The notes: a model not told the origin generated them from the sequence alone. DNA of 61,848 nucleotides, filler included, from Kipferlia bialata (GCA_003568945.1; 4 parts of 4 records of this genome joined end to end with filler, not necessarily neighbours in it), one strand, 5' to 3'; numbered from the whole stretch's first letter, positions 1 through 61,848 are shown. Made by a program: numbers and translations.

Positions 1-1404
1 CTGGGGGGTCAACTACTACTCAGACATCAGGTGGGAAGGCCTTCATTGTGCATATCCCCCCCCCCCCCTCTCTCTCCCTCACCCCAGGACCCCCGACTCG
101 AGTGAGATCAAGGACATCGTTGAGAGTGGCATGCTGCACAGGCTGATCGACCTGTCATTCCATGAGGACAGGTATGGGTATATATATATATACTACTGAT
201 ACTCTTCCTGACCCCCCAGGCGCATTGCCATCCCCGTGCTGAGGGTCATTGGCAACATCAGTGCCGGGGACAATGCCTTCTCCACCACCCTGGTCAACAG
301 GGGACTGCTGGCACACCTGAGGTCACTCGTTTCTCAGGTATGTCATATTATATACATGGTTACACATTGGGTACACAGTTACACTGTATGGTTTACCCTC
401 TCCCCCCCCCCCCCTGACCCTTAGTCCGATGCCTACATTGTCAAGGAGGCCATCTGGATTGTGTCCAACATCGCAGCCTCATACGACCAGCACAGGCTCA
501 CAATCCTGCAGAACGGTACGTGTATAATACACATATATTATATACGATATGTGTATATATGTATACTGTATGTGTATCTGCATGTCTACATCCTCCTCAC
601 CCCCCAGGCCTTCTGGATGACATCATGCGTAAAGTATATAATGTGTGAATATCTATATATTTGTATATCTGTTTATGTTTATGTATACGGTGTGTGTATG
701 TGGACTGTCTGTATATCTGTATGACTACATCCCCCTCACCCCTTAGGCCTATTGGATGACATCATGCGCAACCTGAGGGTGTCCAAGGATGCAGCAGTGG
801 TCAAGGTATGGCAGGCCATATCTGTGCATATGTGTATATATATATCAAATCGAGACTCTATACAGTACGGTATACTCCTTCTCACTATTAGGAGTGCACC
901 TGGGCCCTCCTCAACATGTGCACCTCGAGTGACCAGACCATCCTGCAGGGGGTGGTGACAGACGCCAACACTAAGTCCCTCATTGCAGCCATATGCAGGC
1001 TCAACCAAGTCAGGTGAGTGTAGTATATATATATGGTTAGTACATACACTCTACATTCTTCACTCTCTCCCCCCCTCTCACCCCAGGGACGAGAAGACCC
1101 TCTACACCTGCATTGAGGTGCTGGAGCACTTCCTGGAGCAGGGGGAGAGCCTGGGACTCGACGAGAACCCAGTTGTCAACATCCTAGAGGTATCTATAAA
1201 TACAATACCCATCTCCTACCCCATACTGTCTTCTCTCTTCTGTATCTTGTGTGTGTCTCTCTCACCCCCCAGGAGGACAACAACGGCGCTGGCCTGGACC
1301 GCCTTGAGGAGCTGCAGTCTGCCCCCTCTGAGGGCATCTACACCCTTGTGTCCCACATCATCCAGTACTACTTTGGGGAGGAGGACGAGGAGTACACAGA
1401 GTAG
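1..1404 (+). CDS. KPNA: Importin-alpha (karyopherin alpha), 3' portion, multi-exon, 5' end outside window
   Basis: Joined GT-AG exons give ARM-repeat text: IAIPVLRVIGNISAGD, IVKEAIWIVSNIAAS, ECTWALLNMC. It ends with the importin-alpha C-terminus GLDRLEELQSAPSEGIYTLVSHIIQYYFGEEDEEYTE*, TAG at 1402-1404. Confidence 0.9.
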
Positions 1405-1874
1405 GGGGAGAGAGAAGTCTTCTGCTCCTCCTGACTCTTAGAAGGGGGAGAGTGGAGGGGATGATGGAGTGGTTGTTGTAATTCCTAGAGACGCTGGTTG
1501 TCACCTCATATATATATATACGTATATGCCCCTGGTATCCAAGGGTGAGTGGGTATGGTACTCAGTAACACGTTTGGAACGTGGTACAGTACAAATAGAT
1601 GATCAGATTTATTCAGTGATGATGAGCATGGAGTGTAGGTGTGCTATGCCTATGATAGCATTGCATGTGACATCATTCATCCGGCATCAGCTGATCCACC
1701 CACCCGGTAGACGCGGGTGTAACTGTGCTTCATATGTGCTCCATGGGGGACTCTGTTTAGTTGTAGACTCTGTATACAAGTGGATGAATCGCGTACATTG
1801 CGGAAGCGGTTCAACGTTGTGGTGCAGTTCGATTTGGTCTCTGCTTCTTCCTTCTCTCCAAGTGTTCTCTGTGT

Positions 1875-2284
1875 ATGTCGAGTGCACCTGTGGCCACTGT
1901 GCCAGGGGATGGGACTGATGATACACCTCTGACCGAGGCAGGGTGTGCACAGGGACAGCCCATACCCCGGTGGCTCATCATGGGTCTCTATGCCATCTTG
2001 GCCGTGATGACACTGGTGTTCCAGTTCACAGGTGGGTGGGTATATGTGTATGATGCTAGTGGGGTATGTAAGAGTGTATGTATACATGGGGGCTATAGTG
2101 GAAAGGGAGTGGTTCGGTATTGTGTTTTAGCGTGGATCAATCCGGTAACCGTATTCCCTCATCCTCTCATTTCAATATTACACTGTGTATCAGTACTATG
2201 CTCCAACTCATCAATGCTGATAAGCCCGCCTCTCTGTGCTGCTCTGTTTAAAGATGCAATTCAGTGTAACATCTACTCATCACT

Positions 2285-2327
<43 letters not shown>

Positions 2328-2859: not shown

Positions 2860-5167
2860 ACCAGGAGACAAGCGCTCCCACCTGTTGCTAGGGCAGAACA
2901 CACACGACGAAGTTAGGTGCCTGTAACTGTAGTAATAGATAACCCTCCCCCCCCAAAGTGTCTGGTGTTCTAATCTCTTTTGCTGACTCCTAGGACCCAC
3001 TGTGTGCCAGTGACCCAGGACCCTCAGACAAAGGTGTGTTTCATTGTATACACAATCAGTACCCCCCCCCCCAATCATTATTTCTTCCATAGCACTGGCT
3101 GTGTCTTCCTCACTTACCCACAGGAGTACACCTATGAGCCTCTGGACTACATATATCTTCTCTCTATATGTATGCTTGCTCACCTGAGTCTGGCACTCTA
3201 CTGATACACAGCAGTACACCTCTGAGTCTCTGATATATGCACAATATGTATGTATGTAAGGACGTATATATGTATGTGTGCAAATATTTATACAAATACA
3301 CAGGAGTACATATATGCACAATATGTATGTATGTAAGGACGTATATAGGAATGTGTGCAAATATCTCTACAAATACACAGGAGTACACCTCTGAGCCTCT
3401 GGACTGCCCCATCCCACAGGACATAAGGGGGATAACAGGCACTAGGTACACGGAACAAGAACATGTACATGTGCATATATACAGTATCTCCAATGTATTT
3501 GAAGTAGTGAATAGGTACCTCTGATTTGCATGAGGTGTAACACATGCACAATGAAAAAGTACTCTTCCTACACATCTATGTATGCGTTCAGTATTATAGT
3601 ACTTGGATTTTGATCTTAATAATGCTTACCACTAACCGGTCAGAATAGGTGACCGTGTCTACTACTTTGGGGGCATGACCCATACACACCATGGGTCAGA
3701 TGAACACAGAGACACGTTCCACAGCTACGACATCAACACGCGGGTGTGTGGTGCTCTAGTCACATCCTATAGAGTTAGAGTTGTTAATCAGTGTTGGGTG
3801 ATTCTCACCCCTAGGAGTGGCATCAGATTGAGCAGCCCACAGATGAAGACATGGAGAGAGAGGGACAGAGAGAGAGACACGAGCAGGCTGACCGAGACGC
3901 CATAGGTTCCGTATATGCACATATATATACATATATACCATACCATATTGTGTATGTCTATCCGATGTGTTGTTTGCCTTATGAGTACTTGATTAACACG
4001 AAGGTGGTGTGTACTTCTTCCCAGAGAGTGAGGACATGATAGACAGGGAGAGGGAGTGTGAGACAGGAGGTGAGGTCTGGGCCCCCACTGTCCAGTGGCC
4101 AATGGGACGCAGTGCCTTAACGTCATTCACACTGGGAGGTACAAGGTGTCATATCGATAATGAATACATGTGTTTCATAATAGACACTGTCTATGTTCAG
4201 TCACCTTGTATTTCACATTGGCTGCACTGCCACATAACACTGAAATGTCCCTTCCCCTTCCATCGAGATTCTTCGTACTGCCATTATCGGTGTATATTGA
4301 TTGGTCTAACAACTAGGGTGTTTCTATCTTGTGGGTGGGTACAACAACAGTCTGGCAGATGCCACCCTGAGTGACTGCTGGAAGTGGGACCCAAGGACTA
4401 GGGTGGGAGCATACACCTCAATTGAAACTATAGCCATTCGCAGTATTGTGTAGTTATTGTATATATACTTAATATATTGAATATTGATAATATCCTATAT
4501 TACTCCAGCTGTGGGAGAGGATGCCGGACTGTCCGGTTGGGTTCCACTCTGCCTCTTCCTGCACAGTCGGTGACACAGTGCACATAATAGGTATGATAGT
4601 AACTACACGTGTTGGCATAATTGCAGCATTATCATGCATGTCATTCTTAAGACTCTGCCCCATGCTGCACAGTGAGTGCACCGTATATCTCATAGGTAGT
4701 CTAGGTGTTAGTGAATATGTGTGTAGTGATGTATGCGAAGTACTTGTACTACTGCTGTGGTACCAATTTCAGGAGGCCTTCCCTCCTTGGACATGCATCT
4801 GTGCTACAGTGTCAGACTGGGCTGGGTGGAGATGCCACCATTGCCATTTACGGTACTTATGTGATATATATTGCGAGCAGTATGGCATACTATTCAATAT
4901 ACACAAACACATATACATGTATGTCTGTGGGTATATGTACCAGGTAGAGGTGTCTCCTTGTCCTTATCTCTTAGGTCTCTGCTCCTACCGTTGCCGCTAG
5001 CCGCACAGACATACACGTCATGGCAGAGTACGATATTTGAATACTCCTTTACTCCTTCTCTCTGTTGGTATATATGTGTGTATGTCCATGTAGGGCCCCA
5101 CCACAGCTCCCAGTCCTGTCACACCTATGACACACTCACTGGCACATGGAGAGTCAGCGACAAGTAA
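2860..5167 (+). CDS. Kelch-type beta-propeller protein, multi-exon; start approximate
   Basis: Exons encode kelch motifs: IGDRVYYFGG...FHSYDINT, FLVGGYNN...SDCWKWDP, WERMPDCPVGFHSASSCTVGDTVHIIG, HTYDTLTGTWRVSDK*. Confidence 0.65.
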
Positions 5168-5843
5168 CCAGTGAGACTTCACGTGTGTGTGCATCTGTAA
5201 TAGTGATGAATATCACAGAGTATTTCCCATATGCATGTCACCTCCCAAACAGTGTACAAATTGTCAGTGTATATATCAGGAAATATATAGTTCTCTAATC
5301 AGACATCGGTATACTATACCTATCCATCGGGTTTTGAGGCCTCATGAGACCACGTAGCGTTACTCACGTTAGTGATTGGAGAGCCAGTGACTAAGGATGT
5401 TAAAGAGGCTCCAAAAACCAGCTGTCTAGATGGATTCATCCCATTATCACCAGGTTGAAGCATGTGTCTCACTCTAAGACGGTCCTACAGTGAGACGACG
5501 CGTATGATGGTCTACAAGTTGTAGACTACAACGCTTTTAGTACAACCCCATCCCCTTGTGACTGAAGGCTCAGTCTACAATGAAGCATCAAGCAAGGGTC
5601 ACCAACACAGTTGCTGATCACAGATATAGAAGTAATATCAGTCGTTCGGCAATATATGCTTTAGTCAATGATTCTATGTTGTGGGTTGTGAATCCGACAC
5701 CATCTGAGGGTATCATTTTGCGAATGACGCTTTCACTTGACAGTATATATCTAGAGCACTGAGGGTATATCAGCTCTCACACATGGGTAGCTGCGAACCC
5801 TTCGCCGTTCTACAACAGCTGTACAAACCAAGCAGCTACACAC

Positions 5844-6824
5844 ATGCAAGGAGCTTTCTCAACCAACCCTATTCCGCTGCCACCTCACAAGGATCATTCA
5901 ATGATACCACACGGGGTCCCAGGTCCAGCACCCAACCAGCTCACATGCATGAGACTCCCTCACTCCTTTATTATTCTGTCAGTTGTCCACGTCAACGAGG
6001 ACACACCGGGTATTCAGAGTGAGACAGTTTCAGTAAGATCGTCTGCCCCCAACGGCTGGGTCAACTTTGGTTTAGAAATCAGGCACTGTGTGGTGGACGG
6101 CGTACTCTACTATGTAGTCGAAAAGTCAGGGAACGAACACCGCGTTACGTTTACAATCCATGCAGTGTCACTAGACACGTATACCGTCTCTCAGCTTCCA
6201 CAGCCCCCTGGACACACCAGTAACCGGATGCCTCCCTCTCATTGCCCTATGATAGAGAGCATGTTCGGGCTTGACCATCACATAGTAGTTGTGCAGTGCG
6301 TAAGTGGAGTCTCTAGGGGATTGCAAACACTTGTGTACTCGCCAGAAGATCGAAGTTGGAGGAATATGGGATGCAAGAACTCATTCTCAAGGTGTACCTT
6401 CGTTGGAACGTGTTGTGGGTGTGCCTATGCTCTCATATACAGCTCTGATGACCATGAATACCAGATACGGTCCTTTGACTTGTCTCTAGGATGGCGAGCG
6501 TTAGGAAAGCCACTGCCTCAAGGCCACACGGTCGTAAGTACTTGTAGGTTTTGTATAGCTGAATCCTACTTAGTCTTCCCAGTGACAGATTGTCATAGGG
6601 ATGACCATATTCTGGCATTCGATACAGTGTCTGGTGAATGGAGTAACTGGGGTGAATCCTACCAGCCACACCAGTTCGATGAATGGGGAGTGTTCACACC
6701 CTCTAATGTCTTGTGTGGCACCTCCTTACACAATGACTCTACTGTGCTCTATGATATTGATCCAGCCGATGTAAACCCACACTGGGCACTAAGGTGGGGT
6801 GATGGCGGAGATGTTATACACTAG
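5844..6824 (+). CDS. Intronless divergent kelch-like beta-propeller protein (326 aa)
   Basis: Long uninterrupted ORF with blade-end motifs LVYSPEDRSWR, RSFDLSLGWR and LAFDTVSGEWSNWG. Confidence 0.65.
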   Translation: MQGAFSTNPIPLPPHKDHSMIPHGVPGPAPNQLTCMRLPHSFIILSVVHVNEDTPGIQSETVSVRSSAPNGWVNFGLEIRHCVVDGVLYYVVEKSGNEHRVTFTIHAVSLDTYTVSQLPQPPGHTSNRMPPSHCPMIESMFGLDHHIVVVQCVSGVSRGLQTLVYSPEDRSWRNMGCKNSFSRCTFVGTCCGCAYALIYSSDDHEYQIRSFDLSLGWRALGKPLPQGHTVVSTCRFCIAESYLVFPVTDCHRDDHILAFDTVSGEWSNWGESYQPHQFDEWGVFTPSNVLCGTSLHNDSTVLYDIDPADVNPHWALRWGDGGDVIH

Positions 6825-7470
6825 CGGTTTGATGGGAGGAATAGAATAGTACACCATGTGACACCATAATAGCTATCTTTCTTAGTACAAATGAGTCATT
6901 TGAAATTACGGACACTCTATTCAAATTTATTACAGTCTGTGGACACTCTTATCACTCTGAAGTCTATTTTTGACTCTAAAGTAGGATTAACAACTGTTCT
7001 TAGGTAGACTGGTCATATTACTTAACTGATAGTAGTTCTCTGTGTATTCTAGTGAGTGTTGCCGAAGTAATTGTAGTGCCTAGAGTGCTACACCCTATAT
7101 ACATTGTATCATGGACAATCTGGGCATAGAAGACTGTGGCCGGAGCCTCCAACTCGCGGGTACAATTTCTATGGTATATAGTACACAGTATACCATAATG
7201 TGTGGAAGCTATACAGCTGACTGTATGGTCTACAGATCCCGTCATTCAAGCCATTGTAGACTCCACAGTGACTTGAGAGTATCAACAGTTGCCACTGTTT
7301 ACACTGCCATTCTATAAGGCTCTCATACGATGGATTCGACTGGTTCTCCACGCTGTTTCTATCCACATTCCCTTTGAACCCACAAAGAGTGACATCCAGA
7401 ACTAGTCAAGTGAGTCACTTGACTCAAGTGACTTGAAACATCTCCTTGACTTGACCCATCTCCTTGGAGA

Positions 7471-8418
7471 ATGGCACGTAGGGCATGGTATGATCGCTGC
7501 ACATTAGCACTCCCAGAGATCACAGATGAAGCCAGAGAGAGATCATGCCCTCAGATGGTATCCTTGGGACACAACAGGGTCCTCCTGACGTATGTAGATG
7601 GATACCTGGACGCCAAGTGGTCAGTGCTCACTCTCAATGACAATGACTCTGTGACGGAGAGTGCTCTTTTAGTACCTCATGCCCTTGCATTATGTACTGA
7701 TCCTGTGATTGTCAGAATCAGTAACGCAGTTATCGCGTACAGCTCTATAGGGGGGGAGTCAGTAATGTACCAGTTCAGCTTAGAGACTGAGGAGTGGGAG
7801 CAACTGGAGTTCAGTGGAGCTTCGCCTCCAAGATGCTTCCCTATGTTGCTGCCAATGTCTGGGTCTCATGTTGAACTAATATTGACTGGTGGGTGGGACG
7901 CGGTTACCAGAGAAGGGGCTTCTGACGCTGTTCTCTTAGATATTGGTAGGAGGACGTGCTCTCTACTTGGAGACTTTCCCAGGACGTTAAGCTCTTCCGA
8001 CGAGACTTTTGTAGCGTACAGTGACACGTGTCTAATCCCGCCATATTGGTCTACATTAGGTCCGGGTCTCAGTGTTTCACTCTCTTCAGCTGGCGTAGAG
8101 ATATCGGAAGAGGGCTGGTTGTATTGTTCCTTGGGGAAGGAAATACTTGGATACACCACTGCGTGTGACGGCGAAGACTATAGGCGCCTCTTTTTCACTG
8201 TTTCGGATAACAGTGGTATGCTGTCAGTTGGTATCTATGACATAGTGTCCAATGACCTGATCCCTTGTGAGCCTCTTCCCCTGACCTGTACAGGGGATCC
8301 AAACGTGGCAGCTGCAATGTTCAATCCCACCACTGTCATTGTGGTTGGTAGGACTCAGACACTGCTTGTTGAGCTGCTACCGGGGGTAATGGGGCCAGAC
8401 TATTACGCAGACATCTAA
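7471..8418 (+). CDS. Intronless divergent kelch-like beta-propeller protein (315 aa)
   Basis: Long ORF with YQFSLETEEWEQL...SPPR, LILTGGWD and GIYDIVSND motifs. Confidence 0.65.
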   Translation: MARRAWYDRCTLALPEITDEARERSCPQMVSLGHNRVLLTYVDGYLDAKWSVLTLNDNDSVTESALLVPHALALCTDPVIVRISNAVIAYSSIGGESVMYQFSLETEEWEQLEFSGASPPRCFPMLLPMSGSHVELILTGGWDAVTREGASDAVLLDIGRRTCSLLGDFPRTLSSSDETFVAYSDTCLIPPYWSTLGPGLSVSLSSAGVEISEEGWLYCSLGKEILGYTTACDGEDYRRLFFTVSDNSGMLSVGIYDIVSNDLIPCEPLPLTCTGDPNVAAAMFNPTTVIVVGRTQTLLVELLPGVMGPDYYADI

Positions 8419-8889
8419 GAGTGTGAGAGTATATGAGTATAGGGTAGCAAGGAATATATATAGACGTAATTGAGGTTCTCTGATATTAATAGACTGAGGT
8501 ACAACCCCTCAGTCCTCGAAGAGTTCTACGGTAGACATTCTAACGCTGCAGCAGTGTGCCGATTCCTCCTTCCCTCAAGTTGGTTTCCCAAGTGGTGATG
8601 GCCTAGCACTACTAGATGTGTGAGCATATGTGTGGACATCAGCTTATGTGCAGGACCTCTCTAATATAGAAACTGTACAGTAAATGTTGTGTATATAGTT
8701 ATAGGGTCAACATCATATGGATGCTGTCTTGGTACTGCACAGGGACATCAGCAGGTATGTAATATGAATATATGAACATATAGCATACTATTCAAGCATA
8801 TGATCTCTCAATACGTTCTCTATCCAAGGTCCATCCACTACACAAACACACCTCACTAATCTATATTCCTCAACAGAGAGAGTGCGTGT

Positions 8890-10733
8890 TTATGGCCCAG
8901 ACAGTCTGGACGCAACGTGCGGCACGTACGGTGCCACTGTCTCTTCTCTCTCGACAATAGCAGCCAAGAGGTCGAGGGCATAGTAACCCAATTTGGCACC
9001 CATGTGTGGAAGTGCAGCATCTAGTGTAACACTAGAATGACAACACTAGACTAATGTTGTCAACATGCAGTCATGACACACAATGTACACTCATAAGGAG
9101 TCTCTCAACCACATCATGAAACGACACCAATAATCGACTCTATGCTGAACATCCCGTTCAATATGTGGGTTAGATATGTAATTACTCCCTGCAAAAGTCC
9201 TCTGGCCCGAGCACACCTCCGTTCTCATGAAGCTGAACGAGGTTGACTGTCAGACGGTACCATGACCCACTGGAGTTAGGAATAGTGTCAACAGGTAACC
9301 GTATGTATATATATATACAAGTCCCACAGAGACATTGAGATGAAAGAGGCAATTATGGAAGTACATTGGAAACCAAACCCCTATATAGTGATCATCACCT
9401 GCCCAGACGGACTACAAACGAGTCCTGGTCAAGCCGTGTGATCATCTCAAAACGGAAACTCGTGACGCAGCACATTGTCCAGTTTCCACTAACTGCATCC
9501 ACTGCATATATGGTGCACCAGTCATCCTCTTCACACGCATCATCCGTACTGCCATCGACAAATACCAATGTGCAGTGAGAACTAACCTGGATGGCGGAGA
9601 ATACAAAGAGAGTTGCAGGAACATAGCAGCTGACTGGCACCGAGGTCCACCCGATGCTTGCTGGGGTGAACACGTGGTACTTCAGGGGCCAGATGCCGTC
9701 CCCGTCCAGGTCTAAGATACTAGCAGTCCAAACACTGGATCCAACAGGAAAGAGAGAGATTGTGTGGCAGCTTGGATCTAGGGTGAGACCACCCAAATTT
9801 CAATAGTATAGTTCACAGCTTGCTATATATACCTTCGAGGTTCCCGAGATCCCCAGGCCATCTCGTGTAAGATGTCCACCGTCCAGTCTGGTATCAATAA
9901 TGCTGTGAGTGTATGTGGCTAGTGGTGTGTCGACACATGTGTATATACATGTTATCTTGTCCACCTGAGGGTCATACAACCAGGTGCAGCCATTGGTGCA
10001 CAAAAGGAACAGCTTGTCACCAAGAGGGAAGAATGCCTAAGGGTAAGAACACTGTTAAAAATTGACTATACCTGGCAAATGGCACTTGGACAGAATAGTT
10101 ATGAATCCGGTTACTAAAATGCACCTACCACAGCTGCATCCTTTGGGCCAGTATAGATACCCGGTTTGGCTGGGAGGAAGGTCTGCTCTCCTGGGTGTCA
10201 GTCTTGGTGTCCACCTACGTGGTCATAATGGTATCGATACTACTCCACGAATTGAAGAATAACAAGGTTAGAATTGCCCTCAGCAGAAAATCAGTCTTGC
10301 CTGCGCCGTGCAGGTTCAGAACATGGAGACCATAGAGGCGCCTACTGGTTGCACGGCGGTGTCCTTTTCCGTACATGTACAGCTTACCGCCGAGAACCGC
10401 AGGGAAATTGGACTTGGTACGTGGATCCAGCGGAAGAGGCTGTTCCCCAAGGACACAGAGACGAGTCTCAGTGTGTGCTGCCCGCTGTCTCTTCCGGATA
10501 TCGTGGTGGTACACGGACTCCGTTCCAACACTGTATGGACCCCTTAACATAGGTACCCCTAAGTGGCTTGATATGAACAGGTTGTTGCCCAGTGGTGAGA
10601 GACCATGGGGATCCCCTTGGAACGCATAGGTGTGGAGTGGCTCAAGACAAAGAAAGGGGCACTGGTTGTTGAGGAGGCCTTCCTCGGTGAGAGTCTGCAT
10701 CTGCGCTAGGTCTGAAAGTGAGTGGATCCCCAT
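8890..10733 (-). CDS. Divergent kelch-like gene, intron-split or decayed
   Basis: Minus-strand fragments LPLDPRTKSNFPAVLGGKLYMYG, TWLYDPQVDK, HVFTPASIGWTSVP and IYAVDAVSGNWT. I could not reconstruct a continuous frame. Confidence 0.4.
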
Positions 10734-11848
10734 GTGTATAGCATTGTGCAGGTGTAGTGTATACCTACGTTGGTTCAGAGGCGGCTCTCAACAGTGCACA
10801 GCTGTTCTACAGCTATGTGTCAACAGTGGTAACGCTGCCTGTCAACAGTGACAGACACACTGTATAACAGGGCCACACTGTCTGAGTGTCAGATAGGCAT
10901 TTGATTGAGTGTGGATTCACATAGTTCCTAGGGAGAAGCAAGTTAACAAATACTGTGTCCGTTCCAATATGGACCATACATCGCATACGGTGAGGAATAC
11001 TATTCGAATAACCGACATGTAGATGCGATAGACATCAACAATACATAACCACGGCTATCAAACCCATGTATGTACTCAACAGTCATCCAACCTCCTGTTT
11101 GGTCTGCTTCCGCTGTGCTCTTAAAGAGAGATAGGAGGACTGAACCCAGTTTTACAGCACTGATATACTGTAGAATAGTATGCAATGATGGCCTCGCTAT
11201 TACATATGTACCTCTCATGATACCCTGTGTTCCTGGGGTGATACCCTATTGAGAAGGTCATACAAGATTCACGCAACCTGCTACAACGTAAGGCCCACCC
11301 ATTCTTACCCTTGTGGGGTCAGACTTCAAGCGCAGTAACATCAACAATTTAGGTTCTTACATATGAAGGAGCGTGTAAGATGTCTACAGATTGGGATGAT
11401 CCCGGCACTATATGTTCTCACTCCTCTGCACAGTGTGGGTGGGATAAACACAAAGATCAGCCTCATTTTTCGGTGTGTTCGTTGCTCAATAGTGTAGTAG
11501 GTGGACCGAGAGAATTGAAGTAAATTTGGAGTTGTTGGTAGCTAGGGGGTCGGATACACCAGTTATGTCGCTTCGGTGTAGTACTGAGACACTACGGCTA
11601 CGAGCTCCCAGAGTAGTGTGCGGATTCGATCCTCACTCAAGTTGCTTGCCCAACTAGTGATAGCGTAGCACTGCTTGATGTGTGAGCGCCTGTCTGTACA
11701 TCAGCTGTAGTCTATACTGTAGACTTCACCGGCAAACAGAAACACTGTTACAGTATATTGGTGTCAACTCTTAGAATGAGAGAGAGTTATATGGTATCTA
11801 GAAGAGTGTCAATCTGCTGACTAGGACGTGCTCCTTTACCTCACCCAA

Positions 11849-36405: not shown

Positions 36406-36447
<42 letters not shown>

Positions 36448-36566: not shown

Positions 36567-36617
<51 letters not shown>

Positions 36618-48776: not shown

Positions 48777-51700
48777 ATGTCTGACCCAGAGCTGTCTCTT
48801 TACACCAGGTATGTGTCTGAAATATACATTAACATATGCATAATTGTGAATAGTAGCATTCCTATTGTGTTATGTGTTGCTATATTGTGTAAGAGTATAG
48901 GTGAAGAGAGAGGCGTCATAAATGAGTAAGAGGATGAGTCTTCTGTACAAATGTCTGCTTCACACCTCCTTGCATATGCTGCGTGCATCTGGTTTAGCGT
49001 ACATCTCTCTCTCTCTCTCTCGTAGATATGTTTGTGAGGAGGGGTGGTTGTTCACGCTCTTTCCTTGTATAATGCATAGCATATGTGACATGTTCAATGT
49101 GTATATTGGTACCATTGACACTGTTCTTGTGCTCAGATGTTGAGTCTCTATACATGTATGTCTTTGTCAGTAGTACCGTTACCGTATTAAATAGGTGTAC
49201 ATACTTGTATATCTCTACATTGTTCAGTCCCACACTGAGTATGTGTGTGTTTTCTCCCTTTTTCTCTTGCTTCACCCCCCCCCCCCCCCCCCCCCTCTCT
49301 TCCCCTCATATACTCTCTCTCTCTCTCTCTCTCCCTTATACCCCAGCCCCCCGGTGCCCCCCTCAGTCCCCCCTCCAGTAGTGTGTCCACCCTGGTGTCT
49401 GATGTTGGAGACATGCTCCCCTCCACACTAAGGGTGTCCTCCCTGGCTGTGGTGGGTGACCACTCCTCAGACATAGCATCTGCCCTATGTGCCTGTGGGA
49501 GGTATAGACCAGAGACAGAGGGGGATGGAGACTACCACTTCAGTGATGCGGATGTTCCCATCCCCGACCACTCTCCCTGCCCTGTCTCCATGGGTAGTAT
49601 AGGGTGTGTACCAACACAGGGTATGCAGGTGGACCTAGTGCTCATAGCCAACACCCTGGACACACATCCAGAGTGGAGGGGGGCGTTACGTGCACTGTCT
49701 CATACCCTGACCCCTGGTGGGTGGATGGTGGTGAGGGGGAGAGAGAGGGCTGGGTGTGAGCGGCAGAGTGTGCTTAGGGAGCTGACACGTCTTGGATACC
49801 CTGACCTGTCAGATGGCAAAGGGGGTAGGGGGTGTGGACACTGGGCAGTGCTGGAGGGGGAGACCCTCTCTCTCCCTGGGTTTGGCGATGCATGCTTCTC
49901 AGCCATGCCCTCCCTGCACACTGCACCCAACCAGGTGTACTACATAGCAGTGCACAAGCCAGAGACAGCTGTCACACCCACGCAACAGAGTACTAAAGGA
50001 GTGGAGAGTGACACTCTGGGACTGGCTGCTGCACTAGATGTGCTGGTGCAGGAGAGGGACATCAGATGTAACCCCCTCAGCTATTTTGCATCCACCTCTA
50101 GGTCGGTAGAGGTGTACTGTGCACCCACTAATATGCCTATGGTACAGGGTCACGCTGACGTGCATGGGGTGGAGAGTATAGTGGTCAGGGACATATCATG
50201 CCCAGAACAGAGGGAGAGAGAGAGACCCTCTGATGGTCTGGGTGTCCCTGCCCTTGTACTCTTGCAAGGTGTATCCAGTGAGGATGCTACCTCCTGTCTC
50301 CTATCCGTAGCCCCCCACACCCCTATGCTACTGGTGTCCAGTGCCTCCCCCCTCCCCCCCTCCACCCATGCCTCCCTGTTGACCTGTGGCATGGTGTGCA
50401 TAGACATGGCAGACAGACTGGGTTGGTGTGCAGCACTGTACTACAGGCCACAGACAGCTGACAAGGACAGAGAGAGGGCACACTTCAGAGCCATGAGGCA
50501 GACCAAGGACTGGGCCAGGATATCAGGTGGGGGGTCTGGCACATTATATGAAGTGGTATGATTGTATTCTCACACACACACACGGTCTCTCCCCTCTCAT
50601 CTTAGGCTATGTGCTGGGCGTGGCCTCTGGCAAGGGCGGCCCCCTGAGCCCCAAGGCCAAGGAGGAGTTCAACACTCTCTGTGAGACAGCACCTGATGTG
50701 GACGTGTATAGGTTCCTGCAGAGCCATGTACCCCCAGGCACGGGGGTCGCCAATGGGGAGAGGGAGAGGCTATACGCAGTGAACAGGGCTAAGAAGAGGG
50801 CGAGGGAGATTGCCGGTCTGCTGGAGAGAGGTGAGGTTGGGGTGAGGGTGCAGCCCAAGGCCATCCTGGATCTGTGCTGTGGGGATGGGAGTATAGCGGC
50901 TAGTCTGGCTAGAGAGTACAGGATACCCCCCTGTGCCGTGGTGGGTGTGGACATCAGAGAGCCCGAGGACAGGCACGGGACTGTGTTTGTGCAGCACAAC
51001 ATAGACAATGGTGCACTGGACCCAGGGGCCTATGCAGACCTCGCAGTGTGTATGCAGGTGGGTATCAATATATCTCTAGTATGTATGCATCACACCCTCC
51101 CTCACCCCCAGGCCCTGCACCACGTGTCTGCCCTAGACCATGCCCTCTCCACTCTATACAACTCCCTGCGGCCTGGGGGTGTGTGTCTGATCAAGGACGT
51201 CGAGGCAGCCACCCCCTCAGACCGTGCCCAGCTGGACATGCAGCACGGGGTGTACTCGTGTGTGGGTGACCCCCCCGAGATGTCTCCCGAGGACTTCACC
51301 TCCCAGTTTGTCATGTACTTCAGAGGCCCCAAGGAGGTGGAAGGGGTGGCCAGGGAGGTGGGGTTCGAGATCACATACTCGGCACCTGCTGGAGACAGAG
51401 GTATAGGCTCTAACTACTGGCTGGTGCTGAGGAAGCCAGGGGGTGACAGGTCGCAGGATAGAGTGAAGAGCAAGGTGAGGGTTGTGCTCAGAAGTGAGAA
51501 GGAGAGACACGGCTGGGACAGGAACAACTGGCGTGATAGAGATGGAGGTGACAGGGACTATAGGGGTGATAGGGGTGAGGGACAGGGTAGGTACAGTAGG
51601 GGCAAGCGGTCCTTTGGGAAGAGGAGAGGGGGGTACAGCCCAGACAGGTGGAGAGAGAGTGACAGAGATTCCGACAGAGACGGATACAGGCGGTATGGCA

Positions 51701-51783
51701 GAGACCGGTCCCCCTCCCCCAAGAGTAGAACAGGACATAGGGGAAGGGGGAGAGGCAGGGGGAGGGGGAGTGACCGATATTAA
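48777..51783 (+). CDS. Class I SAM-dependent methyltransferase with degenerate N-terminal MTase-like region and RS/RG-rich C-tail
   Basis: Motif I ILDLCCGDG, VVGVDI, DLAVCMQALHHV, LYNSLRPGGVCLIKD. Upstream relic LSHTLTPGGWMVV. Tail RDRDGGDRDYRG...RGRGRGRG. Early exons are uncertain. Confidence 0.75.
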
Positions 51784-52154: not shown

Positions 52155-53910
52155 CTAGTAGTCACGGGACCTGTCAGGGCCTCTGGAGGAGCTCCTGCTG
52201 AAGCGGCCTCCCTGCCTCTCGCCTCCCCTGCTGGGGCCTCTCGACCTTCCGTTGCTGGGGCCTCTGGAGCTAGACCTGTCTCCTCCTCTGCCTCCTCCAC
52301 CGCCCCTCCTGTCTCCGTCTCTGTCTCCACCCCTGGAGTGACCCCTAGAGCCTCCCCTGGAGTTGCTGCCACCACGGTCGCCCCTGCCGCGGGACCCGCC
52401 CCTGGAGTTGGCCCTGCTGCCACCCCTGGGGGAGGAAGCGGCAGAGCGCTGGATCTCGTGGGCGTGGGACTTGAAGTCGAACTTGTCGAGCACGTCAGAG
52501 GAGTACATCGAGCAGAGGATGGCACGAACCTCGTTCTCACACACCTGGGGGTGAGGGGAGGGGGGGGGGGTATTGATATGGTGTTCTGTCCTTAATGCCT
52601 CTTCTACATACATCTATACACGTCGGAGTATATATTGTATATGAGACTGGTAGAGTAGGTACCCTTGTCCACGTATACCCATACCAAATAGAATAGAATA
52701 GAATATACTGCATGCACGTCTAGACGTACCGTCCTGGCAGCCTCGTCGTTCGTGTTGAGCCAGAACTCCATGTGGAGGAAGGTGGGTCTGATCTGGGGGG
52801 TGAGACACAGAGGGGCAGGGGGGCAGGAGTGTGTTACTATCACCATGTGTGTCTATGTAGAGTATAATAACTGCACATACCTTGCAGACCACTCCGTTGA
52901 CCAGGGGGTGCATGGGGGAGGTGCCTCCAATCACAGAGAGCAGCACCATCAGGAACTGGGCCTTGAACTCAACCTGGGGGGTCAGGATGGACTCACATAT
53001 GATATATACCACACTATAGCATACCCCCATACCTTCTCCATGACGCCAAACTTCTTCTCGGAGCTCTTGCTGTTGTGCATCTTGATGGACATGGTGCACC
53101 CGTCCTTGTTGGCGGGGTGCTCCCACTTGGGCTCGATGTCACCCTTGAAGTAGTGGTATATGGCATACCTGGAGTGAGAGGGGGAGGGGGACACATAGAC
53201 TATATAGTATATTGGGTAGAGTGACTGAGTGAGAGAAAGATACGCAGTCACATTGGTGGATACAACACTGACTGTCGACCAAGCCAGAGTAGCCCCACCA
53301 CCACAGTATATGCAGCATCCTGAATCATATATGTATATCAATGTGACGTACTGGACAGACATGTTGCCGATGGAGACGAGGGTGTCCATGAAGTGGTACA
53401 GGCACCAGAACTCCTCAATGCTGGAGAAGGTGGACACCTTGTGAACGTTCTTGGCCCAGGACTCCTCGCTGGTGCTCTGGCTCTTCTTCGACTTCTTGTT
53501 CTTGGGGATCTGGGGTGAGCAGGGGTATACAGGGTGGTATATAGATGCAGGTGTATCATATATATCAATCAGAGACACACACAGATGCGTTCCCGTACCC
53601 TAGTGGAGAAGTGGAGGGACCAGCTCTCCTGGAAGTGCATGCCGGAGATGTCAAACATCTCCAGGTCCTCATCGTCGGACTCCTCCTCAGCAAGAAGGTC
53701 ATCGGACTCACGGGGGGTGATAGGGCCGGCGGTCTCCTCGGGGACAGCCTCCACAAGGGGGAGAGCAGCCACAACGGCAGCAGCCTCGGTAACCTGCTCC
53801 TCAACCTCCTCGGGGGCGGTCTCGGCCTCAACCACAGCCTCCTCAGCGACAGCAACCATCTCTGGGACCACCTCAGGGGTCTCAGTGACCACAGTCTCAC
53901 AAACACTCAT
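52155..53910 (-). CDS. EIF4E: Cap-binding translation initiation factor eIF4E family protein, 6 exons, acidic N-extension and RGG C-tail
   Basis: ESWAKNVHKVSTFSSIEEFWCLY, YHYFKGDIEPKWEHPANKDG, LLSVIG, VNGVVCKIR, MEFW, FKSH. Confidence 0.9.
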
Positions 53911-54210: not shown

Positions 54211-56427
54211 ATGTCCAGAGGGGAGAGAGGTACACGAGACTATCACCCAACTAGTCGGTATCATAGTGATAGAGATGATAGGGACTGGCGGGAAAGGGGG
54301 AGGGGGGGAGACAGAGACAGAGATGCATCTAGGGGAAGGGGCTATGGGAGGGATGACAGGAGTGATAGGTGGGAGAGGGATAGTCGGGATCGAGTAGAGA
54401 GGGGTCACAGAGACCAGAGGGAGAGGGGTAAGGGGCACTCTCCCTCTAGGGGTGGAAGAGGGTCAGACTATAGGCGGAGAGAGAGTGGGTCAGGGGGTCG
54501 GTATAGCAGCAGTGGTAGGGATTCCGGGAGGGATAGGGAGGACACCTCTGTTGATGTTGAGGGTGTGTGTGTCACGACCCTCAATGCCTCAGACACATTC
54601 AGACCCTTCTCCACAAAGAACCAGGCTGCAACCACGGCAGCACAGAGACACGAGGTGGGGGAAGGTGCAGTGTCAGGTGTATATGGAGTATATCCAATCT
54701 CGTAGCTTCTCCCTCCTCTCCCTCACCCCCTAGGCCCGTACCGTTGTGAGAGCAGCTGGCCACATGCGTACAGCCCTGTCCTGCCAGACAGACGGGGGGG
54801 TGAAGGAGGGTGGGGGTGGGGGGGCTGGGAGTGAGGCCTCTGTGCCAACCTCTCTCTCCCTCCCCTTACCCCCTTGCATCAAGGTGTTGACAGGGGTGGG
54901 AAAGACAGAGGGAGAGAGAGAGGCTGGCAGTGCCTCCCCCTCCCCTGTGTGTGTCCCTGTCCCCCTTGGCCCTGTCCTCTCTGTCCTAGCTGCCGCCAAC
55001 ACCCCACCCCCCCTCTCCTCCCCCGACCCCCTTGCATGTTTCCACTGTCCCGACCAGCCATTTGGACATGCCATTGAGAAGTACTGGGCACAGCGGTACA
55101 GGTACTGTCTTATATGAGCATGTCTTTCTCTAGAAGTAGTAGATTCATGGTACAGGTGGATAGTAGTCTCTTCTCACACCCCTCCCACACTCACCCCCAG
55201 ATTGTTCCCTAGACATGACGAGGGCACAGGGTTTGTGGCAGACCCAGAGGGCTGGTACGTATACACATGTCTGAGTGTACCCTAACTGATCATTGCTGAC
55301 ATGCACTCTCATATTCTACATGTATGCCTGGGTTGTCTCAGACCCAGAGGGGTGGTACGTGTATACATATGTGTATACCTTTGGAGGGATATACACTTCT
55401 ACTCATTCTCATTATACAAACATTAATGAATATATAGTTTGCATCAGACACAGAGGGGTGGTGCGTGTCTTCACTTGGAATGGTTTCTCTCTGTTCCGTG
55501 TAGCCTTGTCCTCACCCCCCAGGTTCAGCACTGTCCATGTGGTCTTCTGTAGAAATAGTGTGTCTATATCATCACAATAGTGTGTCTATATCATCGCTAT
55601 TGAGCCCTCACCCCTCAGGTTCAGCACTGTGCCCGAGGCCATGGGCAAGCAGATAGGGGGTGTGATAGTCTCTGCCCTGGGCGAGGGCTCTGTCCTCTGC
55701 GACCCCATGTGTGGGTGCGGCACATCGCTCATCCACGCCCTCACTGCACACCCCTCTCTGACAGGGGTGGCAGGGGACATAGACCCCTTGAGGGTGGCCA
55801 TGTGCCACAGAAACTGCGAGATAGCAGGGGTGGCAGACAGGGTGTCCTTCTACGTGGCAGACTGTCTGTGCGAGGGGCCTGGGTCTCTATCCGCTGCCTT
55901 GGAGCGTGATGGGATCCAGTGCTCATGTGTCATCACCTCTCCCCCCTTTGGTGGCCCAGAGTATGCGACCAAGCCCACCTTCGACCTGGCCTGTGACCTG
56001 CCCCAGTGTCTGTCTGCCCTGATACCCAGTCTGCACAGGCTGAGTGACACCCTCTGTCTGTTGATGCCTAGGAACACTAGGCTGGACAACCTGCCTGCAC
56101 TGCTGCACCCAGACACACCTAGTACAGGGGGTGCATCCACAGACCCCAAGGTGGAGGGGTGCATCCTGACCCTCAACACCAAGCCCAAGATGTGTGCTGT
56201 CATGACGGGGGGGCTGGTGGATGCATCCAGGCCCAGGTGCTCACAGGCACTGCTGGCCAAGGCCAGGTGGGTATATATGCATATATGTGTGTATATATTT
56301 TCATATGTTGTAATACTTGTCTATTAATGATATTCTCACCCCTAGGTGGGTCATGAAGAGAGGCCCCCGTACCGGTCAGGGACAGGGACAGGGGAGAGGG
56401 AGAGGGGGGAAGCGGTGGAGGCGGTAG
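54211..56427 (+). CDS. TGS1: RNA cap guanine-N2 methyltransferase (trimethylguanosine synthase family)
   Basis: KYWAQRYRLF, EGWFSTVPE, DPMCGCG, GDIDPLRVAMCHRNCEIAGV, VITSPPFGGPEY, LLMPRNT. RS/RG-rich N-terminus; TAG at 56425-56427. Confidence 0.9.
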
Positions 56428-58291: not shown

Positions 58292-58330
<39 letters not shown>

Positions 58331-58699
58331 GTACACATTCGGTATTGCCATCGCCTTACCCAATCCCTCAGGGATTTGTATATTCAATGCGTTATATACT
58401 CAACACGCTCCTAGGCCATTCTTATATCTCTCTCTCTCACTCTCGCTCCTTCTTCCTCTTACATCCGGGCATATCGCTCACTCCCCTCACCCTGTCCTAA
58501 CCCCCCCCCCAGTCAAGCACAATGTTCTCTCTCTCTCTCTCTCGCTTCCTTTTCCTCTTATACCAGGCATTTCTCTCACCCCCCTCACCCTGTCACCCCC
58601 TGCCAAGCACAATGGATATATACTATATACTATATACTTTAATACTATATTCATTGTGCTATACTATATATTCTAACACTAGGCATTACTCTAAGACCC

Positions 58700-61600
58700 A
58701 TCACCCTGTCACCCCCTGCCAAGCACAATGGGTTTGGGAACCTGGTCTCACTGGGGGACTCAAAGGTAGTGTTTTATGGGTAGACATATGGATACATAGT
58801 AGTATGACAAGAGTTTTATATTATTGTATACATATATATATGGTTTGGGAGCCTGGTCTCACTGGGGCACTCAAAGGTATTGTTATACACACACATTAAT
58901 ATATGTGTATATTAAAGTATGACAAGAATAAGAGAGATATCAGTTATGTATATACACATATAAGCTTATACATACACATATAGTATGGGAAGCTTCTGGC
59001 ACTGGGGGACTCAAAGTTAGTGTAGTTATATGTGTAATCATAGATATATAGCAGTGTAACATAAATAATTGTAGTATTTAATGTGTATATACATATAGTA
59101 TGGGAACCTTCTGGTATTGGGGGACTCAAAGGTATGGATACGGTCATGAATACATGTATACGTACACCGACACATACACACACATATAGACATGTCACTA
59201 CCCCGGGCCATGCTGGTATACCGGATAATAGACACCTGAGTACACGCTCTATTCACATTATATATATGCACTATATATATATATACCCCAGGCCATGGTT
59301 GTATACTATAACCAGTATACTGTTTCAGATATATGCCAATATATGTTGATTTACTAAACGTATACCCCAGCCCATGCTTGTGTACTACAGCAAGTCTATT
59401 GCTATTTATATATATATTGACATTTTGTTTCCCTAGATGGGATATATACACTAATGCACCAGGCCATGCTCGTGTACTACAGCAAGTCAGACCGCCAGGA
59501 GAACACAGTAGAGTGCCTAATGCTGCAGGTATACCAGAACTGTACTCTCTCTCTCTCCCTGTCTCTGTCTCTCTCTCAATACATATATTTGAATGTCTAT
59601 ACATACCTATTAGCTGCATATCAGGAGACATAGATCCAAGTGTCCCTTCCCATGCTCCAGTTCAATTGCTGATCTCTCTCTCTCTCTCGCTATATATATA
59701 TATGTATGTGTATATGAGTATATTACTACATATTATTCCTACCCTAGGTATGCTCTGATGGCACTTACACCCAGGAGAGGGAGATATCTTTCTCTCTCTC
59801 TCTCTCTCTATGTATACATAATGAAATGAGAATGAGACCATAATATACTCACCCAGGTATGCTCTGATGGCACCCATACCCAGGAGAGGGTGGAGTGGCC
59901 CGATGACTATAGGTACTGTAGTCATATGCATACACTTCTCTATGTAAGCTATATGAATGTATATCTGTTTTGATAGTATATGTCTTTATTTATTCATTGA
60001 GTCTCGCTATCAGGTGTGTCCATTACACCAACGCTCTACACACATATGTATATGTACATACTACCACAAAAACGTTTTTACATTTCCACACTTACTCTCA
60101 GGCCTTTCTCCACATTCGCAGTGGCAGTGGGGGAGAACGAGGTATTTTTGATTATACACACAGAGAAATATCTATGAATATTTGTATCTCACGCCATAAT
60201 TGAGAGTTGCATAAAACTAATTCTTCTGATTATGTCACAACTATTCTCTCTTATCTCGCAATTGTCTTTACTTATCTCGCAGGTCTGGATCTTCACCTCT
60301 GAGTGCATGGAGGGTGCTGTTGTGCAGTGCACCTCCATCTATGCATACACTGTGGACACGGGGGTGTGGAGGGTAACGGAATTGACGTATATACTGCAGC
60401 ATATACCTGGTAGGATATACTATATATATGTGTGTACATGTGTACAGTGCACATCCATCTCTGCATACACTGTGGACACTGGGGCCTGGAAGGTAAGGAT
60501 TGTTTAATATACTCACACTTAGACATGGTATGATACACAGCATACACATCCCACCTCTCTCTGTGCATTATCTATGTATCCAATATTCGTAACCTAATGT
60601 CTTCCCCTGGCAGGACTAGTGGCCCAAGGTTATATAGATATTTATACCCATATATATATGTATTTATTACACCCTCTATGAATTCATATACTAATACCCA
60701 GGTCTTCCCCTGGCCACACTAGTAATCCCCAAAAGAGAATAGTATATACATGTGTATTCCTATATATATATCAGGTCTTGCCCTGGCAGGACGAGTGGCC
60801 CAAGGTCAGGGAGTGCAGGATGCACTTTAACCTGGGTAGTAAGGTATCCACATAAGCTAATGGTGCATATATATAGATTATTAGTGAATACAGATGCATA
60901 TGTGTGTGGCAGGGAGTGCAGGATGCACTTCAACCTGGGAGCCAAGGTATCCACACACATATTAGTATATATACTATTACATGTAAGATATGATTTTGAC
61001 GGATACTCTAGTTTTGGCGATGACCGTATTGTGTATTGTTGTCTTTTTCACTCAATAGATCTACTTTGGGGACCTCAACGGTGATTGAGAGGAAACCTAC
61101 TACATACGTATACATCACTTACTATATTGTATTGTCTCACCCTCTAGATCTACTTTGGCGGTGACCTTAATGATGACGGAGAGGAGTACTACTTCTACTC
61201 CCTTGATACCATGACAATGGGGTGGGAGGTCATGGAGGATATGCCAGAGAATGTGGGGTACGACCTTAAGAAAGTGTATTAGCATACTTATGTGTGTCTG
61301 GGTATTACTATACTCTCTAGATACCATGACTATGGAATGGGAGGAGATGGAGGATATGCCAGAGAATGTGGGGTTAGTGATACGAATATATATGTATATA
61401 GATTAACTAGCAATAGTCCATTTATGTAGGTAATAGGGTGGGAGGAGATGCCAGAGAACGTAGGGTATGTCGACAATACTCATGTTGGTATCTTCTATTC
61501 ATATTATTGTATACATCTTCTCTGTCCCCCACTATGTATGTACCTCATACCAGGTATGGCCATGCCGTTGTTGTCGGCTCCCTATTACCTCTCTCTCTCT

Positions 61601-61848
61601 CTCTCTCTCCCCCACTCTCCCCCTTCTCTATATTCCTCACACTTAGGTATGGCCATGCCGTTGTTGTGGGTGACACTACCCATTCTCTCTACTCTCTCTC
61701 TCTCTCTATCTATATATGTATATGACTATATATGTATTCATATATCGATGTGACACTTAGATATGGCCATCCCGTGGTCGTAGGTGACACTACTTATCCT
61801 CCCCCCCCCCCCCCTCTCTCTCTATATGTATATATTTATTCCTCACAC
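58700..61848 (+). CDS. Kelch-type propeller protein with many small exons; start unresolved, runs off window
   Basis: Exons VWIF...IYAYTVDTGVWR, EWPKVRECRMHFNLGAK, IYFGGDL...FYSLDTMTMGWEVMEDMPENVG and YGHAVVVGDT. Confidence 0.6.
58729..59136 (+). repeat. Intronic donor-side exon-echo array (4 copies)
   Basis: TGGGAACCTGGTCTCACTGGGGGACTCAAAGGT variants at ~58729, 58841, 58983 and 59098. Confidence 0.85.

Follow-up and report, generated by a model that had tools for sequence, protein, structure and literature searches.

We analyzed a 61,848-nucleotide (nt) window of the Kipferlia bialata genome (GCA_003568945.1), consisting of four contigs joined by spacer sequence and representing one haplotype, and found that about a quarter of its introns contain copies of the adjacent exon edge together with its splice site. 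These copies, termed echoes, are separated from the real junction and from one another by AT-rich spacers of roughly intron length, and plausibly represent scars of DNA break repair. All counts apply to the window only.

Exon edges are copied into adjacent introns

An anchored test, in which exon-edge probes were aligned to their own intron and an echo was called at a local score of at least 24 with an empirical p<0.01, identified echoes in 38/149 introns, distributed over 10/14 genes on all four contigs. Reverse-complement probes gave 0/298 hits, revealing no inverted copies, and far-edge probes, limited to exons of at least 90 nt, gave 0/118. An earlier note on this DNA had proposed precisely such an alignment of exon edges to flanking introns, and in the window it separates echoes from both controls. 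Removing one gap-affected case leaves 37/148 introns, and the 10 genes with near-open reading frames have echoes in 19/102 introns. At a looser cut-off, 49 junctions scored, of which 46 arrays were retained with 73 copies (1–5 per array), distributed over the contigs as 16, 14, 8, and 8 and over 10 genes. In the anchored test, donor and acceptor cases are about equally frequent (21 and 23, respectively). A scan independent of annotation returned 94 direct-repeat pairs at short range, nearly all of which are exon-edge copies by inspection. Ten coordinates singled out in the earlier note all fall on real arrays: nine match detected arrays, and the tenth, 41675, is a decayed copy in the array of acceptor 42018 that the copy-picker overlooked and a 20-mer scan recovered at 41690–41707.

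The gene set comprises 14 genes and 149 introns and was generated with a small predictor and correction by hand; the initial predictor fused genes and served as a guide only. Functional sites were taken to be the outermost ones, picked by open frame. Kipferlia bialata proteins match two exons of the window at 100%, P0001 (TGS1) and P0002 (hypothetical; gene H), and the outermost-site choice agrees with the public models for TGS1 and, bar one array, for gene H. Genes B, C, D, and G retain internal stops, and their frames are only partly settled. Copies <11 nt and spacers <20 nt were omitted, and repeats <11 nt fall below the detection of the scan. The gap-affected array at 15043 and an ambiguous array at 35818 were omitted from the spacer, profile, and divergence tests, and 14035 from most of them. 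Protein searches with the window proteins matched only the window's own proteins and therefore offered no paralogue comparison; two metagenome scans for relatives yielded none usable, with one locus at 27% identity that was not used.

Duplications are concentrated at junctions, as the earlier note had implied. The 20-mer scan found 0 matches in 7857 positions of an intron-poor region, and the 93 matches in 5899 other positions outside gene spans are, by inspection, all echo arrays extending past the first or last annotated exon. Matches in intron interiors are parts of arrays, except for one 22-nt tandem repeat. Planted duplications were recovered at 76–93% in intergenic DNA and 68–88% in introns (40% and 34% under heavier decay). 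A uniform rate, assuming 30 usable positions per junction (our own assumption), predicts ~25–30 intergenic and 20–27 intron-only events, against 0 and 1 independent events observed; with expectations lowered to 21 (intergenic) and 14 (intron-only), the Poisson probabilities are 8e-10 and 9e-5. Constraint on intergenic DNA could contribute to the absence of echoes there.

The earlier note had placed the arrays in at least ten genes on all four contigs, which stands, and had also described them as window-wide, which does not: four genes lack echoes altogether (0/53 introns), and echoes are clustered by gene (p=3e-4; 21 adjacent pairs vs 9.5 expected). House-keeping-type conserved genes, such as eIF4E and an HBS1-like gene, are echo-free. 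Within genes, echoes are more frequent in the 5′ half (26/50 vs 12/46, p=0.012). The densest regions, 13900–19600 and 35700–42100, each cover two divergently transcribed genes.

Anatomy and divergence of the copies

On the exon side, a copy spans 11–52 nt (quartiles 20/26/32), followed by the splice site and a few intron bases, with identity quartiles of 0.90/0.94/0.98 over the best-scoring stretch. Measured at fixed positions, identity is ~0.9 at exon bases 1–10 and close to baseline by bases 41–50; overall, exon copies have 185 mismatches and 7 gaps per 2118 aligned bases. Without gaps, the intron side is more similar than the consensus baseline chiefly up to ~position 9, with an identity of 0.71 vs a baseline of 0.41 at donor positions +3 to +6. 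Gapped intron-side homology is graded, extending 2–45 nt, and exceeds the null in 20/43 nearest copies. Arrays have a period of 57–236 nt (quartiles 91/104/121, n=68) and spacers with length quartiles of 64/75.5/94 nt (n=70), none <30 nt. These spacer lengths match those of ordinary introns almost exactly (65/76/93.5, n=50) and correspond to an intron minus about one splice signal. The predicted growth of introns is apparent in their length: echo introns have a median of 294 nt vs 87 nt for those without echo, and the stretches from real sites to their farthest echoes account for 7684 of 26,379 intron bases (29%). The remaining intron always measures at least 62 nt.

The arrays are polarized as first described, with donor echoes downstream and acceptor echoes upstream of the real site. 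The polarity requires no special mechanism, because any duplication that crosses a junction leaves the full exon attached to the outer copy. A fall in identity with distance from the functional copy, also proposed, is only a trend (11/16 multi-copy arrays, p=0.21).

Coding divergence was expressed as the ratio of non-synonymous to synonymous differences per site (pN/pS) between echo and real exon, which is 0.44 (0.29–0.66) for 70 copies and 0.35 (95% interval 0.22–0.55) for the 44 nearest copies, falling to 0.27 in the subset with the best frames, out of seven subsets tried. The 44 nearest copies carry 41.5 synonymous vs 49.5 non-synonymous differences and no stops; farther copies carry stops. 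Differences between echo and exon show little transition bias. A neutral copy beside a constrained exon gives at least 0.5, so the measured ratio is compatible with neutrality, its interval including 0.5, and the lean below this value is a hint of past use or of a coding donor.

Most spacers are filler

Spacers are homologous to their neighbor in 17/68 pairs (mean z 0.84, p=6e-5). In single-echo arrays, 4/26 spacers are homologous and 22/26 unrelated, and where the exon copy is at least 95% identical over at least 20 nt, the corresponding numbers are 4/18 and 14/18. Simulated duplicates diverged like the exon copies (7% substitution per lineage and 6% indels) were detected in 98% of cases, and the observed level of homology would need ~15–20% substitution and 10–15% indels per lineage in the spacers. 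Homologous spacers remain alignable beside exon copies that are 75–100% identical, and spacer homology does not correlate with exon-copy identity (rho 0.23, p=0.26). Within a given intron, AT content is higher in the spacer adjoining the real site than in the remainder (0.70 vs 0.63, paired p=6e-4, n=41). Most arrays thus contain the non-homologous AT-rich filler described at first reading. Two array classes emerge: most arrays have unrelated spacers, and a smaller group consists of head-to-tail units, a few of them doubled two at a time; whole-length unit homology is present in parts of arrays 36712, 37079, 47323, and 747. Since spacers are mostly not intron copies and are AT-richer, plain tandem duplication fits only the minority.

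Several sources of filler were examined. BLAST returned 38 lines >1 kb from their own array, and the 30 listed are simple TA/GA repeats; among these matches, inserts are not homologous between loci, arguing against a mobile element or introner within the window, a weak test in a window of ~0.1% of the genome. Spacers are not whole introns, as only 8/59 copies possess a partner splice site. The joints are too eroded for exact placement, but the far boundary displays no excess of GT or AG that would indicate microhomology (5/23 vs 5.1 expected; 10/20 vs 6.6, p=0.075). Filler matches its own flanks in direct orientation with an excess of 2.1 nt (p=0.003).

A possible origin in break repair

With about even confidence, we favor the view that echoes are scars of double-strand-break repair without Ku, whereby a TA-rich core breaks, synthesis over-copies across the junction, and PolQ-type joining adds filler. 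TA repeats are break-prone, and aborted synthesis followed by end joining yields tandem duplications. Breaks would occur in the TA-rich cores of introns 50–120 nt long, and a broken end would be extended on the intact sister, past the splice site and 10–50 nt into the exon. Instead of annealing, this end would undergo PolQ-type joining to the other end, keeping part of the old intron while AT-rich sequence is added or swapped in, to yield an exon edge, a spacer, an exon-edge copy, and a full-length intron. Geometry alone would then put the copy past the donor or ahead of the acceptor, as observed. In some arrays, units have later multiplied head-to-tail, one or two at once. The TA-rich spacer would provoke further breaks, giving clustered arrays, and the GC-rich exon piece would remain recognizable while intron-only copies blur. 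The copies would have no function of their own, and the spliceosome would take the sites of full exons, as in exon definition, and skip the decoys.

The density of (TA)3+ runs rises from 0 per kb in exons and 0.9 in intergenic DNA to 4.6 in echo-free genes, 7.0 in plain introns of echo genes, and 11.3 in echo introns. Metamonads lack classical end joining (PMC8516963), and Supplementary Data 2 of that paper lists no Ku70, one PolQ, and five Rad52 entries for Kipferlia bialata, compared with one Rad52 each in Giardia and Carpediemonas membranifera. The lack of Ku, the retention of PolQ, and TA runs that are dense in introns and densest in echo introns together argue for TA-core breaks and PolQ-type joining. 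Donor-acceptor symmetry would be expected because a DNA process is strand-blind, and graded intron-side homology because part of the old intron is kept. The break-repair view also accounts for the full-length remaining intron, the AT-rich spacer, the clustering, and the empty intergenic DNA; with breaks concentrated in TA-rich intron cores, splice sites themselves would not need to be targeted. The earlier note had offered break repair and RNA-templated repair as candidates; we favor the former, and a spliced-mRNA template is excluded where copies run into intron-type sequence, carrying intron bases above baseline as at donor +3 to +6.

A number of observations weigh against this scheme. At the level of single introns, TA runs are only weakly associated with echo genes (30/57 vs 19/53 introns with a run, p=0.09), and the runs may be an effect of echoes and not their cause. 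The steps derive from one haplotype in which no break, template, or polymerase was observed. The match between spacer and intron lengths and the lack of spacers <30 nt are not predicted by it, and filler added at birth is indistinguishable from wholesale replacement soon after. The patchwork typical of PolQ filler did not emerge: the excess of direct flank matches in filler largely reflects matches to other units of the same array, and inverted flank matches, looked for in the same filler, show no excess. Finally, a copy neutral from birth should have a pN/pS of 0.5, a value that the nearest echoes reach at most.

An unlikely but substantial alternative is that plain tandem duplications of ~100 nt, generated by slippage or unequal exchange, span junctions simply since introns are shorter than the duplication, with the AT part rewritten fast or the exon part kept alike by gene conversion. 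This would explain the homologous quarter of spacer pairs, a spacer length equal to an intron minus one splice signal, and the two-unit repeats; size alone would explain the lack of intron-only copies, and the human F7 IVS7 repeat offers a match (PMC1557585). The spacers, however, would have had to accumulate the high simulated divergence given above beside exon copies with few mismatches and gaps, exon-copy identity would be expected to track spacer homology, which it does not, and the 0 intergenic events are left unexplained.

We consider it quite improbable that the process is coupled to splicing, with breaks or R-loops forming at splice sites of a reduced spliceosome and repair proceeding on nascent pre-mRNA by Rad52 or PolQ reverse transcription, maybe capturing excised intron RNA as the spacer. 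Copies do end near the junction on the intron side (mainly by +9), spacer lengths mirror intron lengths, echoes do not occur outside genes, and the 5′-half bias and the five Rad52 entries (PMC8516963) point the same way, as do the 87/174 spliceosomal proteins and absence of small nuclear RNA (snRNA) candidates reported for Kipferlia bialata (PMC6679479). Against it stand the rarity of copies with a partner splice site, the far boundary without GT or AG excess, the AT-richness of spacers relative to introns, and the absence of echoes from eIF4E and the HBS1-like gene.

A very unlikely source is a diverged allele or paralogue used as the repair template. Its intron would have been unrelated beforehand, and copy and spacer would stem from separate haplotypes. 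Such a template would account for spacers that are unrelated and of intron size, for branch motifs that differ yet are intact, and for the observed synonymous-biased differences; however, over 1837 and 936 nt of gene H a DNA sequencing run is free of allelic differences, several copies adjoin unrelated spacers despite being 100% identical, and the pN/pS interval includes 0.5.

Decoy splice sites

Echoes retain the splice dinucleotide in 33/38 (GT) and 26/31 (AG) cases, close to the expectation from ~7% neutral change per site. Scored with matrices trained partly on this window, 28/38 donor and 26/31 acceptor echoes lie above the 10th percentile of real sites, and the best echo equals or exceeds the real site in 11/21 donor arrays and 11/22 acceptor arrays, in keeping with the near-perfect decoys noted at the outset. 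Use of an echo in place of the real site would cause a stop or frameshift in 38/42 cases. In TGS1, only the outermost join restores the EGWFS motif shared with human TGS1, and the public model agrees. The spliceosome would use the sites next to the full exon and skip decoys, as homology indicates for TGS1 only and as we infer elsewhere. Skipping donor and acceptor decoys alike amounts to choosing the longest intron, as would happen under exon definition but not under intron definition; on the donor side, F7 IVS7 provides such a case (PMC1557585).

One array departs from this pattern. The public model of gene H uses an echo (47397–47437) as an exon, repeating ADDEQCE, and the only differences between this echo and the real exon are two synonymous changes. 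The full-exon donor is GC, four echoes have GT, and the public model moves to an internal donor (47259–47437). Donor 47323 is therefore a candidate splice-site takeover, and the only candidate found; the repeated renewal of splice sites that the earlier note envisaged is not borne out.

It is highly improbable that the copies are functional as recursive sites, micro-exons, or alternative sites under selection. Echo sites do score like real ones and the gene H model does include one, yet most would disrupt the frame if used and farther copies hold stops. Recursive AG|GT sites show no excess (6/27 vs 25/122), and in-frame micro-exons are not favored: of the eight copies with a partner site, 3/8 are in frame, and a further count (11/43) likewise gives no frame bias. 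An importin-alpha-like echo at 608–629 (21 nt, followed by GT, with synonymous changes) could splice as an in-frame micro-exon.

Four arrays are reproduced in sequencing data

The arrays are real. DNA contigs from run X1 match 44052–45888 and 45876–46811 with 0 differences at depths of 427 and 429, and a unitig of the longest near-perfect repeat (53 nt) has a depth of 843. This support covers a 3.2-kb stretch (43918–47160) containing four of ~46 arrays, all reproduced without differences in short-read data; since these contigs were built independently, assembler error is unlikely. A second run, X2, presumed to be RNA, placed a single 31-nt contig in this stretch and showed no splice joints, which does not bear on expression or site use; both runs come from one sample. 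That short-read assembly created the arrays is hardly credible: although all data are short-read, the supporting run is possibly the source of the assembly, and one array sits on a scaffold gap with overlapping flanks (15079–15118), the contigs are identical at equal depth, the repeat unitig has twice the flanking depth, substitutions distinguish the copies from one another, and each spacer has a sequence of its own. The 40-N gap lies within 15061–15134 and its flanks share ~15 nt; it is therefore probably spurious and hides a short tandem duplication. At 43952–44013, the X1 contig has about half depth (232 vs 427) and two differences, reflecting heterozygosity or a paralogue, and several loose contig ends in gene H suggest related copies elsewhere.

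Relation to known systems

Gao and Lynch (2009) and Hellsten (2011) reportedly described duplications inside genes and the gain of introns through tandem duplication. As in these models, short intragenic duplications in Kipferlia copy splice signals, and one intron, 14132–14036 (97 nt, minus strand, within 14012–14134), uses a duplicated AG|GT. It opens with a copy of the next exon (24/24), after which come 71 nt of 77% AT sequence unrelated to either exon and ending in a branch motif and AG, and it reads as a candidate intron gain with a long target duplication; deletion from an older echo intron would look identical. It is the 1 candidate for exon insertion creating a new intron among 46 arrays. 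In contrast to those models, which involve contiguous sequence and do not predict either feature, Kipferlia has unrelated filler and a concentration at existing junctions.

Junction-spanning minisatellites are known from the human F7 IVS7 37-bp variable number tandem repeat and from IFI6 (6-16), CBS IVS13, LMNB2, and PDGF (PMC1557585). As in F7 IVS7, the splice site is reiterated in the adjacent intron, here as 73 copies at 46 junctions. The exon-adjoining site is used in F7 IVS7 despite strong copies (PMC1557585), with which TGS1 homology agrees, while the gene H model uses one echo. Those minisatellites are, however, single loci with monomers alike throughout (PMC1557585), whereas Kipferlia arrays occupy a quarter of introns, affect donors and acceptors, and mostly have unrelated spacers, with units homologous over their whole length in only 17/68 spacer pairs and 4/26 single-echo arrays.

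The insert itself resembles Daphnia pulex neointrons, which average 78 bp and 78% AT and are ascribed to double-strand-break repair (PMC4202315). In both, an AT-rich insert of ~80 bp (here a median of 75.5 nt, AT 0.70) is unrelated to its flanks, in Kipferlia for most arrays, and accompanied by direct repeats of the adjacent exon end, and young Daphnia neointrons are likewise prone to further internal duplications (PMC4202315). The Daphnia repeats measure 4–12 bp, whereas those in Kipferlia are 2–5 times longer (11–52 exon bases), and the Daphnia insert makes a new intron inside an exon (PMC4202315), unlike echoes, which, bar the one candidate, cross existing junctions and leave decoys.

Alternative end joining by theta-mediated (TMEJ) or synthesis-dependent microhomology-mediated (SD-MMEJ) routes also leaves local duplications and inserted sequence at repaired breaks, such as tandem or partly tandem insertions of 10–1000 bp in rice, and is prominent where classical nonhomologous end joining (NHEJ) is lost (PMC7407515). 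Concentration at splice junctions is not described there. Kipferlia arrays resemble junction minisatellites in what they demand of splicing, and Daphnia neointrons in the size and composition of the insert (PMC4202315), yet miss a defining feature of each. They represent known duplication and repair processes in a form that stands out for its scale and for spacers that are unrelated and of intron size. A literature search, which left most subscription journals uncovered, turned up no genome reported to carry exon-edge copies in a large proportion of its introns. The Kipferlia bialata genome paper reports a short-read assembly with 124,912 GU-AG introns (PMC5874029), and the word stem 'duplicat' does not occur in it.

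Should the window be representative, Kipferlia bialata would have tens of thousands of introns that record dated intron-lengthening events, each with a built-in clock in the comparison of exon copy and real exon. The origin of new intron sequence would then be testable in one genome, as would the selection of real sites by a short-intron spliceosome when decoys of equal strength lie 100 nt away. The finding bears on whether intron richness is ancestral, as the genome paper argues (PMC5874029), or partly self-made without classical end joining. Gene models in Kipferlia bialata may include echo copies as exons. A bolder reading, which we regard as improbable, is that a repair pathway coupled to splicing works on exon-intron junctions throughout the genome, where it copies the exon edge and adds a new segment the size of an intron. 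A quarter of 125,000 introns would have been rebuilt in this way, with an occasional handover of function or new intron, and the process would be tolerated since a reduced spliceosome with unidentified snRNAs defines exons despite 76-nt introns.

Survey of the arrays

The arrays are described by gene, and the names importin-alpha-like, kelch-like, and leucine-rich-repeat-like are provisional labels. In the importin-alpha-like gene (608–768, plus strand), acceptor 747 has an echo at 608 (20/22) and a spacer homologous to the upstream intron, of the whole-unit type. The kelch-like gene (plus strand) has acceptor 2452 with an echo at 2409 (13/13) and acceptor 2649 with an echo at 2570 (20/20) and an unrelated spacer (2409–2668), followed by acceptor 3381 with echoes at 3124 (24/25) and 3212 (19/21) (3124–3405), and a 77-nt head-to-tail repeat with a further acceptor copy at 3233–3387. 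At 2715–2717, its open frame seems to require a GC donor; the genome paper counts GU-AG introns only (PMC5874029).

On the minus strand, a segment comprising a small exon, an intron, and the start of the next exon is duplicated upstream of exons 14574 and 14502 (14493–14720), as seen by eye and outside the 38/149 count. Acceptor 15043 has its echo at 15160, across the scaffold gap (15020–15173). Gene C (minus strand) contains, within 15510–16510, donor 15610 with an echo at 15510, donor 16320 with echoes at 16189, 16044, and 15957 that include a two-unit duplication, and acceptor 16412 with an echo at 16510 and a further copy near 16670. Within 16814–18197 follow donors 17046 (echoes 16945 and 16814), 17334 (17222), 17675 (17592), and 18175 (18080), and acceptor 17726 (17838). 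In gene D (19022–19599, plus strand), one intron carries both types, with donor 19052 (echo 19160, 28/31) and acceptor 19578 (echo 19454, 20/22). The MFS transporter gene (plus strand) has acceptor 22513 with an echo at 22438 (25/27; 22438–22539) and donor 23611 with echoes at 23708 (32/33) and 23818 (32/35) separated by unrelated spacers (23577–23826).

Gene F (minus strand) contains a 30-nt exon-like piece present three times at 35705–35940, whose functional copy is uncertain, and donor 36119 with an echo at 35986 (27/30, the three changes all synonymous; 35705–36148). Donor 36712 has five echoes (36293–36746), the middle units being head-to-tail with homologous (TA)n(GA)n spacers, of the minisatellite type. 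Within 36856–37444, donor 36998 has an echo at 36856 (45/48), and acceptor 37079 has echoes at 37208, 37330, and 37444, one a whole-unit duplication. Gene G (plus strand) contains acceptors 38625 (echo 38545) and 39485 (39370) and donors 38683 (38763) and 39558, the latter with echoes at 39725 (19/20) and 39828 (23/23) and unrelated spacers (38545–39828). It continues with acceptors 40359 (40251) and 41379 (41275) in 40251–41400 and acceptor 42018 in 41601–42062, with echoes at 41900 (41/42) and 41796 (42/45), decayed ones at ~41678 and 41601, and a two-unit (222-nt) duplication.

In gene H (plus strand), acceptor 44293 (echo near 44190) and donor 44615 (echo 44717) lie inside one identical X1 contig (44185–44717). 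Donor 46361 has echoes at 46480 (22/22) and 46603 (29/30), and acceptor 46889 has echoes at 46791 (43/44) and 46693 (20/26); the repeat unitig here has 2x flanking depth (46332–46932). Within 47129–47875 are acceptor 47259 (echo 47129, 39/42) and donor 47323 (GC) with five echoes, at 47437, 47561, 47668, and 47794 (GT) and at 47871; donor 48142 has an echo at 48199 (15/16; 48127–48199). TGS1 (55239–55630, plus strand) has donor 55254 (echoes 55354 and 55460) and acceptor 55619 (55523). Gene L (plus strand) contains acceptors 58683 (58567, 58469) and 59463 (59371, 59292, 59207) and donor 58765 (58876, 59016, 59131) in 58469–59488, and acceptors 59857 (59748), 60775 (60702, 60599), and 61148 (61059) and donors 60372 (60492, 45/52) and 60843 (60946) in 59748–61158. 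At its end (61196–61793), donor copies near 61257, 61372, and 61466 and acceptor copies at 61555, 61647, and 61760 were uncounted, the functional acceptor lying past the contig end.

A contrast to these genes is 24669–33098, where two genes have 0/24 and 0/21 echo introns with median lengths of 72 and 76 nt. The first (24669–28701) is a 24-intron, echo-free gene encoding a cysteine-rich protein, the C-terminal part of which we take to be amylase-like. The intron-poor region (5100–13850) contains kelch-like and leucine-rich-repeat-like frames, and its 7857 scannable positions are devoid of short repeats. The eIF4E protein (52155–53859; Pfam IF4E) has a long tail rich in RGG, and 49347–51783 encodes a methyltransferase-like protein whose tail is RG/RS-rich.

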